Source: an uncultured Candidatus Rokubacteria bacterium
Lineage (GTDB): Bacteria > Methylomirabilota > Methylomirabilia > Rokubacteriales > DASRDR01
Assembly (NCBI GenBank): GCA_963826115.1
Contig: CAWGVS010000005.1
Location: forward strand, 128,001 to 192,000
Reading direction: 5' to 3'
DNA length: 64,000 bases
Made by a program: the position numbers and the translations under genes. The notes beneath the pieces are model-generated. The model saw nothing but the letters and a program-made list of their open reading frames with translations, searched no databases and was not told the origin of the DNA. Shown one piece after another: positions 13,578 through 21,458 of this stretch (within the stretch, counting starts at the first letter, position 1; every line of letters begins with the position of its first letter).

Positions 13578-14486
13578 GTGGCGGTCCGTGTCACCGTTCC
13601 CGCGAGCTCGGCGAACTTCGGGCCGGGCTTTGACGTGCTCGGGGTGGCGCTCGCCCTCTACAACGTCGCCGAGCTCGCGGAGGCCGACGGGGTCTCGGTC
13701 GACGTCGAGGGCGAGGGCGCGGCGAGCCTCCCGAGGGACGCCCGGAACGTGGTGATCCGCGGCGCCCGCCTCGTGTACGAGGCCGCCGGCCGTCCGTTCC
13801 GCGGGCTGGCCGTGCGCCAGCGGAATCGCATCCCGCCGAGCCGCGGCCTCGGGTCGAGCGGGAGCGCGTGGCTGGCCGGCATCCTGGGCGCGAACGCAAT
13901 CCTCGGCGACCCTCTGGGGCCGGACGCGGTGATGGACCTCGCAGTCGCGCAGGAAGGGCACCCGGACAACCTGGGCGCCTCCCTCCGGGGCGGCGTGACG
14001 GTGACCGTCTGGGATGCCGAGACCCGGGCCGTGGTGTCGCTGCCCGTGCCCGACGGCATCGAGTTCGCGCTGCTCGTCCCGGACTTCGAGGCGTCCACCG
14101 CGGCGGCGCGCGCGGCGCTCCCCGCGAGCTACCCGCGTCGCGACGCGGTCTTCAACGTGACGCGCGTCGCCCTCCTGGTGGCGGCGTGGACCCAGGCGCG
14201 GTGGGACCTGGTCGGGCAGGCCATGGGCGACCGGCTCCACCAGCCGTACCGGAGCCGCGCGATGTTCCCGTGGCTCGACGGCGTGATGGCGGCCGCGCGC
14301 GATGCCGGCGCGCTCGGCGCGGCCCTGTCGGGAGCCGGCCCCTCGGTGCTGGGCCTCGCGCCCGCGGGCGCGGGGGCCGCGGTCGCCCGCGCGATGGCCG
14401 ACGCGCTGGCGGGGACCGGGCGCCGCGGCGCGGGACACGTCCTGGCCGCCGACACGCGAGGCGCGCGGGTCGACCTCCTGCCCTGA
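13578..14486 (+). CDS. thrB: Homoserine kinase
   Basis: VPASSANFGPGFDVLG, IPPSRGLGSS, EGHPDN, DRLHQPYR, LSGAGPS. Confidence 0.95.
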   Translation: MAVRVTVPASSANFGPGFDVLGVALALYNVAELAEADGVSVDVEGEGAASLPRDARNVVIRGARLVYEAAGRPFRGLAVRQRNRIPPSRGLGSSGSAWLAGILGANAILGDPLGPDAVMDLAVAQEGHPDNLGASLRGGVTVTVWDAETRAVVSLPVPDGIEFALLVPDFEASTAAARAALPASYPRRDAVFNVTRVALLVAAWTQARWDLVGQAMGDRLHQPYRSRAMFPWLDGVMAAARDAGALGAALSGAGPSVLGLAPAGAGAAVARAMADALAGTGRRGAGHVLAADTRGARVDLLP

Positions 14487-14513
14487 CGGGGTCCCGGCGC
14501 GCTCCGCCGGGGG

Positions 14514-14542
14514 TTGACGGGTCGGGGGGCCCTTGCTATCGT
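14514..14542 (+). promoter_or_regulatory. sigma70-type promoter preceding a ~200-nt leader
   Basis: TTGACG-17-TATCGT with extended TG. Confidence 0.7.
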
Positions 14543-14755
14543 CGCGGCAACCCAGCAACCACTCGTCAAGCGTGGCACTTTCCGTTCGACCCTGGGTCCC
14601 TACACCCCGCTGAGCGAGCCGCTCGCACTCGTCCGCCGCTTGCCGTCCCGCGTCCCCGCGCACCGGGCATCCCGATCCTTCCAGGAGGTGAGACCGCGCC
14701 GCGACCGTCCCGCACGCTCCTCCGCCCCTCGTTCGTCAAAGGAGACGCACGACCC

Positions 14756-15103
14756 ATGAGCCAGGACAAGGTGTTGACGTGCCGCGACTGCGGCAAGGAG
14801 TTCCTGTTCACGGCCGGCGAGCAGAGCTTCTACGCCGAGAAGGGTTTCGAGCACGAGCCGACCCGGTGCCGCAATTGCCGGGCGACGCGGAAGGGCGGGA
14901 GCGCGGGCGGCGGCGGGATGAGCGGGGACACCGGAGGCCGCGCGCTCCATCCCGCGGTGTGCTCGGAGTGCGGCAAGGAGACGCAGGTGCCGTTCCGGCC
15001 GACCGCGGGCAAGCCGGTGTACTGCCGAGACTGCTTCCAGAAGCGGGGGAACGGCGGCGGTGGCCGGCCCGGCGGCCGGCGCAGCCCCGCCTACTTGGAC
15101 TGA
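14756..15103 (+). CDS. Zinc-ribbon domain protein with CxxC-x17-CxxC domain
   Basis: LTCRDCGKEFLFTAGEQSFYAEKGF..EPTRCRNCR and AVCSECGKETQVPFRPTAGKPVYCRDCF; AAAGGAGA RBS. Confidence 0.92.
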   Translation: MSQDKVLTCRDCGKEFLFTAGEQSFYAEKGFEHEPTRCRNCRATRKGGSAGGGGMSGDTGGRALHPAVCSECGKETQVPFRPTAGKPVYCRDCFQKRGNGGGGRPGGRRSPAYLD

Positions 15104-15920: not shown

Positions 15921-15949
15921 TTGACTGCCCTGGGGCCGAAGGCTACCCT
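15921..15949 (+). promoter_or_regulatory. sigma70-type promoter for dcd-pup-fmdB
   Basis: TTGACT-17-TACCCT. Confidence 0.6.
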
Positions 15950-15997
15950 GAGGCTGGCTCATGGAGAGCGGTTCGCCGCCCGTGAGCCGGTGCCCGT

Positions 15998-16552
15998 GTG
16001 ACGATCAAGAGCGATCGCTGGATCAAGCGGATGGCCCTCGACAAGGGCATGATCGAGCCCTTCGAGGAGCGGCAGTTTCGTTCCGGGGTGATCTCCTACG
16101 GGCTCTCGTCCTACGGGTACGACATCCGGATCGCCGATTCGTTCAAGATCTTCACGAACGTGTTCAACACCGTCGTCGACCCGAAGTCGTTCGACTCCCG
16201 GTCTTTCGTCGACTTCCAGGGCGACACGTGCGTGATTCCGCCGAACTCGTTCGCGCTCGGCCGCTCGATCGAGTACTTCCGGATCCCCCGCAACATCATG
16301 ACCATCTGCGTAGGCAAGTCGACGTACGCGCGGTGCGGCATCATCACGAACGTGACGCCGTTCGAGCCGGAATGGGAAGGCTTCGTGACGCTCGAGATCT
16401 CGAACACGACGCCGCTGCCGGCCCGGATCTACGCCAACGAGGGGATCGCCCAGGTGCTGTTCTTCGAGTCGGATGAGTCCTGTGCGGTCTCCTACGCGGA
16501 CCGGCAGGGCAAGTACCAGGCGCAGCAGGGCATCGTATTGCCCAAGGTGTAA
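15998..16552 (+). CDS. dcd: dCTP deaminase
   Basis: [54 protein letters not shown]. Confidence 0.97.
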
Positions 16553-16561
16553 GGGGGCGAC

Positions 16562-16762
16562 ATGGCCGAGCAACAGAAGAAGAAGGTCGAGCGCCCGAAG
16601 GGCGACGGGGACGGCGACGGGGCGGCCGCGAACCCCGAGGTGTCCAAGAAGGGCAAGAAGATCAAGGAAGACCTCGACAAGCTCCTGGACGAGATCGACG
16701 ACATCCTCGAGGAGAACGCCGAGGAGTTCGTGAAGAGTTACGTCCAGCGGGGCGGGGAGTAG
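16562..16762 (+). CDS. pup: Prokaryotic ubiquitin-like protein Pup (GGE type)
   Basis: 66 aa, low-complexity charged N-terminus and C-terminal DKLLDEIDDILEENAEEFVKSYVQRGGE, closely matching the Pup consensus LLDEIDDVLEENAEDFVRAYVQKGG[QE]. Confidence 0.92.
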   Translation: MAEQQKKKVERPKGDGDGDGAAANPEVSKKGKKIKEDLDKLLDEIDDILEENAEEFVKSYVQRGGE

Positions 16763-16768
16763 CCGGCG

Positions 16769-16984
16769 GTGCCGATCTACGAGTACCGCTGCGCGGCGTG
16801 CGGCCGTTCGTTCGAGCGGCTCGTCCACGGCCAGCAGGCGGTGGCGTGCCCCTCGTGCGATAGCCCCGACGTGACGCGCCTCCTGTCCCTGTTCGGCTTC
16901 AAGAGCGGGCAGGGATTCGTGGCGTCGACGAGCGGCGGCGGGGGCGGGTGCGGCTGCGGCCGGGGCGGGTGCGGCTGTCACTGA
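16769..16984 (+). CDS. FmdB-family zinc-ribbon protein with Gly/Cys-rich tail
   Basis: MPIYEYRCAACGRSFE...CPSCDS...GCGCGRGGCGCH. Confidence 0.92.
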   Translation: MPIYEYRCAACGRSFERLVHGQQAVACPSCDSPDVTRLLSLFGFKSGQGFVASTSGGGGGCGCGRGGCGCH

Positions 16985-17016
16985 CGCCCCGGGGGCGAGC
17001 GAGGGCGACGAGCGGC

Positions 17017-17047
17017 AAGGGGGCCCGCAGGCCCCTTTCGCGTTTCT
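17017..17047 (+). terminator. Rho-independent terminator after fmdB
   Basis: AAGGGGGCC-cgca-GGCCCCTTT followed by cgcgtttct. Confidence 0.6.
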
Positions 17048-17071: not shown

Positions 17072-20000
17072 GTGGGGACGGCCCTGACCCGGGAGGCCTT
17101 CTCCCTCGAGGCGAAGTACCGTCTCGAGACCGGCCGCGTCTTCATGTCGGGCGTGCAGGCCCTCGTGCGCCTCCCCCTGGACCAGCATCGCGCGGACCGG
17201 CGCCGGGGCCTCGACACCGCGACGCTGATCTCGGGCTACCGGGGATCCCCCCTCGGCGGGCTCGACCAGACGGTGGAGCGGCACCGAGGCCTCCTGGCCG
17301 AGCACCAGGTCGTCTTCATCTCGGGCGTCAACGAGGACCTCGGCGCGACGGCGGTGCTGGGGAGCCAGCTGGCCCACCTGTACGGCGGCGCGCGCCACGA
17401 TGGCGTGCTCGGCATGTGGTACGGGAAGGCGCCCGGCGTCGACCGGAGCGGCGACATCCTCCGCCACGCCAACTTCTCCGGCGTGGGGCGGAACGGGGGC
17501 GTCCTCGCGCTCGCCGGCGACGATCCCCAGGCGAAGTCGTCGACGCTTCCCACCCATTCCGAGGTCGCCTTCTACGACTTCCAGATGCCCGTCCTGTTTC
17601 CCGGCAGCATCCAGGACATCCTGGACCTCGGCCGCCTGGGCTTCGAGCTGTCGCGCTACTCCGGGCTCTGGGTGGCGCTCAAGGTCGTGACCGACGTCGC
17701 CGACGCCGTCGGCACCGCCGAGGTCCATCCCGAGCGGGTGCGGATCGTGGACCCCGGCTTCGTCCACGACGGGCGGCCGTGGGAGATCCGCCAGCTGCCG
17801 GGCCTCCTGCCCCCGTACACGCTCGAGGCCGAGCGCGACATCGTGTACGGGCGCCTCGAGGCCGCGCGGGCGTTCGCCGTCGCCAACGGGATCAACCGGA
17901 TCACCGTGGACACGCCGGGCGCGTGGCTCGGCATCGCCTCGGCCGGGAAGACGTACTACGACCTCCGCCAGGCGCTGACCGACCTCGGGCTGGACGACGC
18001 CGCCCTCCGGCGCCACGGCATCCGGCTGCTGAAGCTGGGGATGCTCTATCCGCTCGAGCGCGGGATCGTGCGGGAGTTCGCCCGCGGGCTCGAGGAGCTG
18101 CTCGTGGTCGAGGAGAAGCGCGGCTTCGTGGAGCTCCTGCTGCGCGAAGCGCTCTACGACCTCGCCGACCGTCCGCGCATCGTGGGGAAGCGGGACGAGG
18201 CGGGGCAGGTCCTCGTGCAGGCCGACGGGGAGCTCGACGCCGATCTCGTCGCGCGGGTCGTCGCCCGCCGCCTCGAGCGCCGGGTCGCCCTCGACTCGGC
18301 GCGGGCGCGCGTCGCGGTCATCGAGGCCGCGCGGGAGCGACCGATCTCGCTGACCCTGGCCCGCCCGCCGTACTTCTGCTCGGGTTGTCCCCACAACCGG
18401 TCGACCGTCGTGCCCGAGGGCTCGATGGCCGCGGGCGGGATCGGCTGCCACGGCCTCGCGATGAACATGGGCCGGAACGTCATCGGGATCACCCAGATGG
18501 GGGGCGAGGGCGCCCAGTGGGTGGGCCTCGCGCCGTTCGTCGACGTGCCCCACCTCTTCCAGCAGCTCGGCGACGGCACGCTCTTCCACTCGGGCTCGCT
18601 CGCGATCCGCCAGGCGGTGGCCGCGGGTACCCATGTGACCTACAAGATCCTGTACAACTCCGCGGTCGCGATGACGGGTGGCCAGGACGCCGCCGGCGCC
18701 CGGCCGGTGCCGGACCTCACGCGGCAGCTGGACGCGGAGGGCGTGCGGCGCATCCTGGTGCTGACCGACGAGCCCGAGAAGTATCCGACGGGGGCGCGCT
18801 GGGCGCCCGGCGTCGAGGTGTGGCACCGGGACCGCCTGGACGAGGCGCAGCGGATCCTGCGCGAGCTGCCCGGGGTCACCGCCCTCATCTACGACCAGCG
18901 CTGCGCGGCCGAGAAGCGCCGCCTCCGGAAGCGCGGCAAGCTGCCCGATCCCGCGATGCGCGTGGTCGTCAACGAGCTGGTGTGCGAGGGGTGCGGCGAC
19001 TGCGGCGTGAAGTCGAACTGCCTGTCCGTGCAGCCGGTCGAGACGGAGTTCGGCCGCAAGACCCAGGTCCACCAGTCGTCCTGCAACAAGGACTACTCGT
19101 GCCTCCGGGGCGACTGCCCGTCCTTCCTCACCGTCGTGCCGGCGGCCGGGCCGCGGCCGAAGGCGCGGAAGCGCTACGTCGTGGACCGGGAGATCGCCGA
19201 GCCCGCGCTTCGCGTGCGGCGGACGGCGGGTCTCTTCCTCATGGGGATCGGCGGCACCGGCGTCGTGACCGTGAACCAGATCCTCGGCACGGCCGCGCTC
19301 CTCGACGGCAAGCACGTCGCGGGTCTCGACCAGACGGGGCTCAGCCAGAAGGGCGGGCCGGTCGTCTCGCACCTCCGCATCGGCGAGAGCGAGGCGGACG
19401 TCGCCGGGAAGGTCGGGGTCGCGGAGGCCGACGCCTACCTCGGGTTCGACCTGCTCGTCGCGACCGCGGCGCCCAACCTCCTCCGCGCCCGGCCGGATCT
19501 CACGATCGCGGTCGTGTCCACCACCCAGGTGCCGACCGGCGCGATGGTGGCCTCGACCGACGTCGCGTTCCCCGACCCCGGCGGGCTCCTGGCCGCCGTG
19601 AACCGCGTCACGCGGAAGGACGAGAACGTGTTCGTGGACGCGGTCGGCCTCGGGGAGGCGCTCTTCGGGGACCACATGGCCGCCAACATGATCCTGCTGG
19701 GCGCGGCGTACCAGGCGGGCGCGATCCCGGTGCACGGCGCGGCGATCGAGGAGGCCATCGCGGTCAACGGCGTCCAGGTCGAGATGAACACCCAGGCCTT
19801 CCGCGTCGGGCGGCTCCTCGTCGCCGACCCCGGCTGGGTCGCCACCGTGCAGCGGACCCGGGCCGGGGCCGTCGACACCCGCGCGGCGCTCGACGCGCCC
19901 GCGCGCACCCTGGTCGACGCCGCGGGCGCGAGCGGCGAGCTGCGGCGGCTCCTCGAGGCGAGGGTCCCGGAGCTGATCGCCTACCAGGACGAGGCCTACG

Positions 20001-20548
20001 CGCGCGCCTACGTGGACTTCGTCCGGAAGGTCGCCGAGACGGAGCGCGCGGCGGTGCCCGGCGAGACGCGCGTCGCCGAGGCGGTGGCGCGGTACCTCTA
20101 CAAGCTCATGGCCTACAAGGACGAGTACGAGGTGGCGCGGCTCCACCTTCGTCCCGAGGTCCGCGCGTCGATCGAGGCGGAGCTCGGGCCGGCCGAGGTG
20201 CGCTACCAGCTCCACCCGCCGATCCTCCGGGCGCTGGGCATGCAGCGGAAGCTCTCCCTCGGTACGTGGGTGGAGCCGCTCTTCCGGCTGCTGGTCGCGA
20301 TGCGTCGTCTCCGCGGCACCCCGCTCGACCTGTTCGGGCTCGCGCGAGTCCGCCGGATCGAGCGAGCCCTCGTCGCCGAGTACCGGACGATGGTCGAGCG
20401 GACGCTCCGCGACCTCTCGCCGGACCGCCACGAGCGCGCGCTCAGCATCGCGCGCCTGCCCGACCTCGTCCGCGGCTACGAGGACGTCAAGCTCCGCAAC
20501 GTCCAGCGGTTCCGCGAGGAAGCGCGGGCCCTCGGGGCCCAGGGCTGA
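17072..20548 (+). CDS. Indolepyruvate:ferredoxin oxidoreductase family (fused alpha/beta)
   Basis: SGYRGSPLGG, WYGKAPGVDRSGD, YFCSGCPHN, CEGCGDCG..SNC, GIGGTGVVT, YKDEYEVARL. Confidence 0.95.
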   Translation: MGTALTREAFSLEAKYRLETGRVFMSGVQALVRLPLDQHRADRRRGLDTATLISGYRGSPLGGLDQTVERHRGLLAEHQVVFISGVNEDLGATAVLGSQLAHLYGGARHDGVLGMWYGKAPGVDRSGDILRHANFSGVGRNGGVLALAGDDPQAKSSTLPTHSEVAFYDFQMPVLFPGSIQDILDLGRLGFELSRYSGLWVALKVVTDVADAVGTAEVHPERVRIVDPGFVHDGRPWEIRQLPGLLPPYTLEAERDIVYGRLEAARAFAVANGINRITVDTPGAWLGIASAGKTYYDLRQALTDLGLDDAALRRHGIRLLKLGMLYPLERGIVREFARGLEELLVVEEKRGFVELLLREALYDLADRPRIVGKRDEAGQVLVQADGELDADLVARVVARRLERRVALDSARARVAVIEAARERPISLTLARPPYFCSGCPHNRSTVVPEGSMAAGGIGCHGLAMNMGRNVIGITQMGGEGAQWVGLAPFVDVPHLFQQLGDGTLFHSGSLAIRQAVAAGTHVTYKILYNSAVAMTGGQDAAGARPVPDLTRQLDAEGVRRILVLTDEPEKYPTGARWAPGVEVWHRDRLDEAQRILRELPGVTALIYDQRCAAEKRRLRKRGKLPDPAMRVVVNELVCEGCGDCGVKSNCLSVQPVETEFGRKTQVHQSSCNKDYSCLRGDCPSFLTVVPAAGPRPKARKRYVVDREIAEPALRVRRTAGLFLMGIGGTGVVTVNQILGTAALLDGKHVAGLDQTGLSQKGGPVVSHLRIGESEADVAGKVGVAEADAYLGFDLLVATAAPNLLRARPDLTIAVVSTTQVPTGAMVASTDVAFPDPGGLLAAVNRVTRKDENVFVDAVGLGEALFGDHMAANMILLGAAYQAGAIPVHGAAIEEAIAVNGVQVEMNTQAFRVGRLLVADPGWVATVQRTRAGAVDTRAALDAPARTLVDAAGASGELRRLLEARVPELIAYQDEAYARAYVDFVRKVAETERAAVPGETRVAEAVARYLYKLMAYKDEYEVARLHLRPEVRASIEAELGPAEVRYQLHPPILRALGMQRKLSLGTWVEPLFRLLVAMRRLRGTPLDLFGLARVRRIERALVAEYRTMVERTLRDLSPDRHERALSIARLPDLVRGYEDVKLRNVQRFREEARALGAQG

Positions 20549-20567: not shown

Positions 20568-21458
20568 ATGGACCTGCGCCAGATGGAGGTGTTCGCCGGC
20601 GTGTACGAGCTCCGGAGCTTCTCGCGGACGGCGTCGGCGCTCCGCCTGACCCAGTCCACGGTGAGCGAGCACGTGCGGCTCCTCGAGGAGGAGCTGGGGA
20701 CGCGGCTGTTCGACCGGCTGAGCCGCGAGACCGTCCCCACGCGCGCCGGCGAGCTCCTCTACGGCTACGCGCGGCAGATGCTCGCGCTCCGGACGGAGGC
20801 TCGCCAGGCCCTCGATCAGTTCCTCGGGCAGATCACGGGGACGCTGATCATGGGCGCGAGCACGATTCCCGGCGAGTACGTCCTGCCGGCGGTGATCGGC
20901 CGCTTCCGCGAGCGGCACCCCCGGGTGTCGATCACCCTCCAGATCTCGGACACCCGGGGCATCGTCCAGGCCGTGCTCGATGGTCAGGTCGACGCGGGGG
21001 TGGTCGGGGCCGACCCCGCCAACCGCGGGCTGGAGACGCGGGCGCTCATGCCCGACGAGCTCGTGCTCGTGGTGCCGCCAGACCACCGGTGGAAGGATCG
21101 GTCGGAGGCCACGATCGACGAGCTGCGGACCGAGCCGCTGATCGTGCGCGAGCCCGGCTCGGGCTCGCGGCAGGCCTTCGAGGACGCGCTGGGAGCGGCG
21201 GGCCGGAGCCTCGGCGAGATGCAGGTCATCGCCGAGATGGGCTCCACGAGCGCGATCAAGCAGGCGGTCAAGGCGGGCGTCGGCGTGTCCGTCATGTCGA
21301 GCCGGGCGGCCGAGGACGAGTGCCGTCACGGCCTCCTGGCCTGCGTCCGGCTGAAGGACCTCGCGGTGACGCGACACTTCTACGTCATCACGCACGCCAG
21401 CCGATCGCGCTCGCCGCTCTGCCGCGCCTTCCTCGACTTCCTGCAGGGTCCCGCGTAG
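20568..21458 (+). CDS. LysR-family regulator (CysL-like / selenium-metabolism-associated type)
   Basis: HTH SFSRTASALRLTQSTVSEHVRLLEEELG; GASTIPGEYVLP and REPGSGSR are typical of the CysL-like subgroup. Confidence 0.9.
   Translation: MDLRQMEVFAGVYELRSFSRTASALRLTQSTVSEHVRLLEEELGTRLFDRLSRETVPTRAGELLYGYARQMLALRTEARQALDQFLGQITGTLIMGASTIPGEYVLPAVIGRFRERHPRVSITLQISDTRGIVQAVLDGQVDAGVVGADPANRGLETRALMPDELVLVVPPDHRWKDRSEATIDELRTEPLIVREPGSGSRQAFEDALGAAGRSLGEMQVIAEMGSTSAIKQAVKAGVGVSVMSSRAAEDECRHGLLACVRLKDLAVTRHFYVITHASRSRSPLCRAFLDFLQGPA

Follow-up and report, generated by a model that had tools for sequence, protein, structure and literature searches.

To our knowledge, pupylation by Pup, a prokaryotic ubiquitin-like protein, has been studied almost only in Actinobacteria. 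The available text of PMC8223512 places the pup gene of the canonical system in a dop-pup-prcBA locus, and confines the Gln-ending Pup that needs deamidation to some Actinobacteria. In Mycobacterium tuberculosis the canonical order is mpa...dop-pup-prcB-prcA...pafA. Here we investigate a pup gene in a 64-kb stretch of DNA (the window, G000:C5:128001-192000) from the genome of a Candidatus Rokubacteria bacterium of the Methylomirabilota, where it is found between dcd, encoding a dCTP deaminase, and fmdB, encoding a zinc-ribbon protein of the FmdB/Ruc family. Throughout, G, C, L and f followed by a number denote genomes, contigs, loci and families, G000 being the host genome.

Ruc is, as far as we know, the one characterised member of the FmdB family. 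It is Rv0991c of M. tuberculosis, annotated as FmdB family in the available text of PMC13407613. Ruc has a zinc ribbon of four Cys and a disordered C terminus; it binds a single zinc, and oxidation converts it to a holdase chaperone (PMC7448276, cited throughout from its available text). Heat induction of ruc requires the Pup-proteasome system, via the degradation of HrcA, and ruc homologues adjoin dnaK, dnaJ, grpE, clpB, hrcA, groES/EL, ftsH and ridA in several phyla (PMC7448276). The main text of that study, as available, does not name pup or arc among these neighbours.

The system described here is a known one, the Pup-proteasome system; its genes are arranged in an unusual way that is conserved. 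The only pup copy has been relocated and stands fixed beside a zinc-ribbon gene of the Ruc family, and the machinery is encoded in trans. We identified the genes of the locus, found pup in a single copy apart from its machinery, and followed across relatives the conservation of the pup-fmdB pair, the route by which it arose and the promoter elements that accompany it. The account we favour, and hold to be probably correct, is that the one functional pup was relocated to the fmdB/Ruc-like gene in Methylomirabilota and that the operon would co-produce a ligation-ready tag and a stress protein, the proteasome being supplied in trans. Some physical or functional interplay between Pup and FmdB may go with this arrangement.

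A single-copy pup displaced from its proteasome locus

The pup open reading frame (ORF; 66 amino acids (aa), 16562..16762, + strand) starts 9 nucleotides (nt) after dcd and ends 6 nt before fmdB, as had been described in a reading made from the sequence alone (hereafter the sequence-only reading). The identification of its product as Pup, also made there, is borne out by profile searches. The protein matched PF05639 at 76.4 bits (cut-off 27), the sole Pfam family found for it at E <= 0.1, and TIGR03687 at 63.5 bits (cut-off 41.45). It has the size of the family (typically ~60-70 aa) and a GGE terminus, and its C-terminal half is invariant or nearly so in an alignment of 99 sequences. It was the one match among six scored candidates in the whole G000 genome. 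On sequence grounds, then, this is a true Pup and the genome's single functional pup gene. That Rokubacteria have Pup was already known, since public annotation names Rokubacteria proteins 'ubiquitin-like protein Pup'. The GGE end is shared with the Glu-ending Pup variants, from which the Methylomirabilota lineage differs in switching between Glu and Gln: a GG[EQ] end is present in 114 of 114 relatives, as GGE in 80 and as GGQ in 34, and both occur within the window's own genus. Such switching fits with Dop being retained.

Within the 64-kb window there is no match over cut-off to a Pup ligase, a bacterial 20S subunit or Arc, in agreement with the sequence-only reading; such matches are on contigs C6 and C10. 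One strand of C6 carries arc-dop-prcB-prcA-pafA, each gene exceeding the cut-off of its NCBIfam equivalog (arc, TIGR03689, 749-750 bits; dop, TIGR03688, 634.9 bits; prcB, TIGR03690, 298.7 bits; prcA, TIGR03691, 332.1 bits; pafA, TIGR03686, 625.3 bits). A second pafA paralogue is on C10 (G000:C10:101813-103165; TIGR03686, 562.8 bits). Pup therefore co-occurs in G000 with cognate PafA and Dop. Because the full machinery sits on other contigs, pup is displaced from its locus, not orphaned, and the uncoupling of Pup from its machinery that had been proposed is right as to physical separation but not as to the genome, which retains every part.

The typical place of pup is vacant on C6, where ~70 nt without pup separate the dop stop from the prcB start. 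The same vacancy is seen in the 30 Dop loci obtained from 40 relatives of the same order: these read arc-dop-prcB, with prcA wherever the fetched stretch reached it, and none of the 30 has a Pup match (tblastn, E <= 1e-4). On contigs that carry both pup and dop, the two are ~301 kb (G036) or 1.2 Mb (G003) apart; a closed f7 genome of 2.75 Mb has them at a distance of 48 kb. Compared with the canonical actinobacterial locus, G000 has the same parts over cut-offs (Arc/Mpa, Dop, Pup, PrcB, PrcA, PafA) and the conserved C-terminal half of Pup in common. It differs in its dop-prcB junction without pup, in the location of pup on another contig, in its second PafA paralogue and in its host, which belongs to the Methylomirabilota and not to the Actinobacteria. 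The non-actinobacterial lineage suspected earlier is thus confirmed by the closest public loci, which come from Candidatus Rokubacteria/Methylomirabilota metagenome bins.

Some further features of the machinery loci were seen. Several genomes of the window's genus have extra PafA-like matches. The second PafA gene of G000 lies ~2.3 kb from two small genes (98800-99550) that by eye are like gas-vesicle protein A. In L151 and L154 (G005 and G010) dop and prcB are ~890 nt apart, as against ~290-400 nt in most other Dop loci; this spacer has no Pup match and holds some other insertion.

Across the phylum, Pup was found in 141 of 151 sampled genomes (at least 85% complete; range 85-100%). Pup and a ligase-family gene are both present in 132, Pup only in nine, a ligase only in five and neither in five; much of this mismatch can be explained by the incompleteness of the bins. 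Among the bins without a ligase match are G027, G029, G031, G083 and G117. Only in two of them, G031 (L173, C5:8000-22000) and G083 (L183, C87:1-9000), does arc stand alone on long contigs, of 156 kb and 99 kb. The arc genes are 77-82% identical to that of G000, there is no dop, prcB, prcA or pafA beside them, and no Pup-ligase match was found anywhere in these bins, which keep pup-fmdB. No bacterial 20S beta match over cut-off was found in G027, G029 or G031. The arc fragment of G029 runs off its contig end (L174), and the ligase-less cases include some that are artefacts of assembly or do not permit a judgement. Some Rokubacteria lineages may keep Pup without a ligase, which we offer as a lead and not as a claim.

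A separate case is L100:1900-8200, from a 1.0-Mb genome labelled Candidatus Saccharibacteria (G161). This contig of 50% GC has arc, Dop-like, pup and PafA-like genes; its Pup has a GGE end and is 74% identical to the window Pup, and its two ligase-family genes are 28-36% identical to the Rokubacterial ones. There is no fmdB and no 20S match within the 12 kb examined. Either a very small genome has its own Pup system here or the contig is mis-binned.

The pup-fmdB pair and its history

In 77 of the 80 best public loci fmdB is found no more than 60 nt 3' of pup; two of the others are cut by a contig end and the third (L100) is a different locus. Within a set of 30 loci of relatives the pair is present in 24, one is cut, and five are diverged second pup copies, 44-59% identical, without fmdB. 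The spacer, measured in 114 pairs, spans 0-8 nt in 94 of them and 10-52 nt in another 18, with two exceptions. The conserved unit in these comparisons is pup-fmdB. Conservation of the whole dcd-pup-fmdB trio, which the sequence-only reading had put forward for comparison, holds for this pair but not for dcd, which is confined to the Rokubacteriales. That reading had also foreseen that unconserved synteny, with a canonical pup-proteasome operon elsewhere, would make the locus a recent rearrangement; instead relatives keep the synteny, and the separate proteasome locus lacks pup.

How did pup come to be next to fmdB? The sister families preserve a traceable, stepwise relocation from the proteasome locus. 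In f8 and f12 fmdB comes directly after a moaB-like gene, and pup is at the canonical dop-pup-prcB place. All of this is within a single locus in f12 (L132), whose order is moaB-fmdB-arc-dop-pup-prcB-prcA-pafA; a few hundred nt lie between fmdB and the arc gene that follows. In f8 a distance of ~3.7 kb separates moaB-fmdB from a downstream arc gene at the end of the contig (L176), and separate loci (L136-L138) have the canonical arc-dop-pup-prcB-prcA-pafA. In f11 pup is found at the locus head, with moaB on one side and fmdB on the other (moaB-pup-fmdB-arc-dop-prcB-prcA-pafA), and in f7 and f13 moaB-pup-fmdB is present without adjoining machinery. One f9 genome has two copies, one in the canonical dop-pup-prcB place and one as moaB-pup-X-fmdB, which is what a route of duplication followed by loss predicts.

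The gene upstream of pup varies among the loci. Among 106 loci with a called ORF it is a short, 184-aa Dcd in 40, a long DCD in 53, a moaB-like gene in five and a singleton in eight; a filter on GC content at third codon positions (GC3) missed the f7 moaB genes, which were recovered in a separate comparison. The long DCD is a two-domain protein of 378 aa (PF06559, 205.6 bits; PF22569, 215.8 bits) and occupies the same syntenic slot as the short form; G000 has no match to the long-form model PF06559. Either form precedes pup only in the Rokubacteriales, the sister families having the moaB-like gene. In the long-DCD loci the 48-112-nt spacer 5' of pup holds the conserved elements G.TA.AAT (often TGnTAGAAT) and GGAGGG, a ribosome-binding site (>=80% consensus, 44 unique sequences). 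Because these lie between DCD and pup, the pup-fmdB pair of such loci apparently has its own promoter. The linkage to dcd is specific to the order, and dispensable for pup expression elsewhere.

Two other observations were made at these loci. In G117 (L069:2600-4520, + strand; L184:5500-7400, - strand) an in-frame insertion of ~420 aa splits the short dcd that lies upstream of pup. The insertion starts with Cys, directly following the conserved ...LGK, ends with HN before STYARCG and has a LAGLIDADG-like stretch; judged by eye from these features, it resembles an intein that contains a homing endonuclease. At L027:502-1698 (-) and L032:1402-2838 (+) there are diverged second pup copies, 51-59% identical, that of L032 with a GGE end. 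Each is followed within ~10 nt by an ORF of 329-378 aa with a conserved CPVCRC motif, and they may represent a second pairing of a Pup with a Cys-motif protein.

The probable operon and its Ruc-like zinc ribbon

The three genes of the trio are tightly packed on the same strand. The first, dcd (15998..16552, + strand; 184 aa, GTG start), matches the TIGR02274 equivalog at 160.5 bits (cut-off 92.8) and PF22769 at 124.6 bits, and is 82-97% identical to the dcd of relatives in the same position. The 9-nt and 6-nt spacers that follow dcd and pup fit with coupled translation. A sigma-70-like promoter candidate is present ~50 nt 5' of the dcd start (15921..15949, + strand), with TTGACT at 15921-15926, 17 nt, and TACCCT at 15944-15949. 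A promoter consensus scan missed it, because its -10 hexamer matches at only 3 of 6 positions. We keep the candidate since it is conserved upstream of the short dcd in relatives, where 33 unique sequences yield CTTGACT...TAC..T as their >=80% consensus. At the other end, a GC-rich 9-bp hairpin followed by CGCGTTTCT (17017..17038, + strand) is a possible weak terminator; it was not called by the terminator consensus scan, and the folding energy of the region is ordinary (z = -0.53). The sequence-only reading had bounded the trio with this promoter and this terminator. The promoter has gained from its conservation in relatives, but the scans call neither element and the hairpin is only a weak candidate.

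As the conserved element of the short-dcd loci lies upstream of dcd in G000, the trio is most likely transcribed there as one operon from the TTGACT-17-TACCCT promoter, and the co-expression suggested earlier is in this respect probable. RNA data were searched as well. A share of no more than 0.17 of the sampled words was present in 24 runs. Contigs from four soil RNA libraries, with at least 88% likeness to the locus, cover dcd and pup, with little on fmdB, and there is depth on both sides of the dcd-pup junction in three of the four (X2, X3 and X5). These contigs derive from relatives and are without transcript ends, and DNA carry-over is possible; we base no statement on habitat or expression on them.

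FmdB (16769..16984, + strand; 71 aa) matches TIGR02605 at 57.9 bits (cut-off 31.3) and PF09723 at 54.8 bits (cut-off 34.4). Cys8, Cys11, Cys27 and Cys30 form two CxxC pairs near the initiator Met, and the Gly/Cys-rich tail ends in His. In 99 sequences of Pup-linked FmdB, C8, C11 and C30 are invariant and C27 is nearly so; the tail has four further Cys in 99 of 114 and the terminal His in 86 of 114. These proteins form a recognisable orthologous group, clearly distinct from the five other PF09723 paralogues of G000. An AlphaFold2 (AF2) model of the window FmdB, made with 99 sequences, is confident for residues 1-44, which have three strands and block means of 85-89 in the predicted local distance difference test (pLDDT). 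Residues 45-71 are mostly below 50 (at 45-51, 53-62 and 65-67), and block means beyond residue 40 are 44-49. The model thus predicts the disordered, low-complexity C-terminal region of the family. A sequence search of the PDB with FmdB gave only chance-level zinc-finger and cytochrome matches, the best at E = 1.9e-05 over 16 residues.

As modelled, the window FmdB shares the architecture of Ruc: an N-terminal zinc ribbon of four Cys that begins at the initiator Met, then a disordered C-terminal region. Membership of the FmdB family and a genomic association with proteostasis genes are also common to both, the kinship being based on the annotation of Rv0991c and on architecture. The two differ in the spacing of the CxxC pairs (15 residues in the window FmdB, 17 in Ruc) and in the tail, which in the window FmdB is short and Gly/Cys-rich, with its four more Cys and terminal His. 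By analogy, the window FmdB is most likely a Ruc-like thiol/zinc-switched holdase or stress factor, and chaperone activity would be expected of it.

The surroundings of the trio are in part conserved. The order in the Rokubacteriales is ccdA-like, thrB-like, dcd, pup, fmdB, sometimes an oxidoreductase gene, and a LysR-type gene, the ccdA, thrB and LysR labels having been given by eye. The LysR-type gene was found by tblastn downstream of the module in 15 of the 16 loci listed, and was not seen in L102. The oxidoreductase gene follows fmdB only in f1 and some others; in f2 the LysR-type gene is next. In the window the two are an indolepyruvate ferredoxin oxidoreductase-family gene (17072..20548, + strand; 1158 aa; NF009589, 1475.5 bits) and a LysR-type regulator gene (20568..21458, + strand), placed by tblastn synteny and labelled by eye from its N-terminal sequence. 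A small ORF (14750-15103, + strand) upstream of the dcd promoter region starts MSQDKVLTCRDCGKEF within a longer listed ORF (13868-15103); it has Gly-rich linkers and two CxxC...CxxC repeats, and some relatives have a coding sequence like it upstream of dcd.

What the arrangement may mean

The favoured account may be put as a series of steps. In the Methylomirabilota lineage, pup moved out of the dop-prcB junction and settled immediately upstream of fmdB, and in G000 the pair would be transcribed with dcd from the conserved TTGACT-17-TACCCT promoter. As Pup already ends in Glu, PafA, in trans and in two paralogues, could attach it to lysines of its targets with no deamidation step beforehand. 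Pupylated targets would next be unfolded and degraded by Arc and the 20S proteasome, with Dop serving as depupylase. FmdB, being co-expressed, would contribute to that proteostasis response as a thiol/zinc-switched holdase or stress factor of the Ruc type, and a degradation tag and a damage-sensing chaperone would thus be made together. A bolder form, which we think quite unlikely, would make FmdB a dedicated cofactor of the tag, that is, a thiol/zinc-switched adaptor that captures oxidatively damaged proteins and passes them on to PafA or Arc, or that gates the availability of Pup. It would have the pair work free of conjugation in those Rokubacteria that apparently lack dop, pafA and 20S but keep pup-fmdB and sometimes arc.

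Is the adjacency of pup and fmdB functional? Or, was pup inserted by chance between moaB and fmdB and the order then simply inherited, with a shared promoter and no interplay? Several results weigh against the account we favour, most of them by fitting with inheritance, which we regard as possible though somewhat unlikely. The moaB-fmdB order of f8 and f12 existed before pup arrived, and chance history could thus account for the adjacency. Orthologue-like FmdB matches (78-79 bits with a profile of the FmdB alignment) are present in the two f6 genomes, where Pup and Pup ligase are both absent, showing FmdB to be independent of Pup; strict co-occurrence of FmdB with the Pup-proteasome system was rejected on this ground. 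FmdB was likewise rejected as an obligate pupylation substrate, because eight of 114 orthologues have no Lys, which also weakens the case for a dedicated partnership. None of 20 longer Pup-containing proteins has an FmdB domain: three are Pup-ligase-Pup fusions and the rest have Pup alone or with unrelated domains, a weak negative since a C-terminal fusion would block the GGE end. Some genomes contribute to more than one of the locus sets, and the relatives are without exception metagenome bins from a single phylum, which means that the loci cannot count as independent samples. The Gly/Cys-rich tail of FmdB is unlike the hydrophilic tails described for Ruc homologues (PMC7448276), the promoter and the terminator both fail the consensus scans of the window, RNA contigs of relatives cannot demonstrate a single transcript, and any contact or mutual dependence of Pup and FmdB is putative. 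A prediction of the complex of Pup, Zn and FmdB gave no answer (score 0.00 in both runs, without controls) and counts neither for nor against binding. Yet inheritance alone has to contend with the survival of the pair through at least two rearrangements (the pair was parted from arc, and dcd took the place of moaB) while the flanking genes changed, and with a spacer that stayed at 0-8 nt in most pairs. The FmdB family is, moreover, tied to proteostasis genes in other phyla, and by regulation to the Pup-proteasome system in M. tuberculosis (PMC7448276).

The sequence-only reading had suggested that tagging could be linked to nucleotide or metal homeostasis. Spelled out, Dcd, FmdB or both would then be dedicated targets or regulators, and the co-expression with dcd would be the point of the arrangement. 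The synteny of a dCTP-deaminase-type gene 5' of pup across the Rokubacteriales, kept in two very different forms, would suit this, as would the 9-nt spacer between dcd and pup in the window and the extra Cys and terminal His of the FmdB tail, which resemble a metal site. However, outside the Rokubacteriales the upstream gene is moaB-like, the long-DCD loci have a conserved promoter-like element between DCD and pup, and the orthologues without lysine show that FmdB is not an obligate target of pupylation. The conserved partner is FmdB, whose family points to proteostasis (Ruc; PMC7448276), and the suggestion, having found little support, is in our view very unlikely. A role for Pup independent of any ligase, for example as a non-covalent ligand of Arc or FmdB, with the separation from dop and pafA reflecting that role, could draw on the nine genomes with Pup and no Pup-ligase match, on the solitary arc genes of G031 and G083 and on the three genomes without a 20S beta match. 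We consider it highly improbable, as G000 itself has Dop, two PafA, Arc and 20S, and bin incompleteness explains much of the mismatch in a sample where Pup and ligase occur together in 132 genomes and five have the ligase without Pup. The GG[EQ] end, kept in every relative, is also what would be expected of a ligated tag.

The relocation of pup to a Ruc-like gene, with co-production of tag and stress protein, therefore stays the account we favour. Full-text literature searches found no report joining Pup with FmdB. The Ruc study (PMC7448276) was among the matches for pupylation and zinc ribbon; of the matches listed for Pup or pupylation none named Rokubacteria, and those for pup, proteasome and Methylomirabil- included, judged from their listing, none on this arrangement.

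A whole phylum outside the Actinobacteria carries the Pup system, with a traceable exit of pup from the proteasome locus, and candidate lineages are now flagged in which Pup may persist without a ligase. Since Ruc of M. tuberculosis is a redox-activated chaperone induced via the Pup-proteasome system, the conserved operon of pup and a ruc-like gene provides a concrete and testable hypothesis, namely that in these bacteria the sensing and holding of damaged proteins may be linked with their tagging for degradation.

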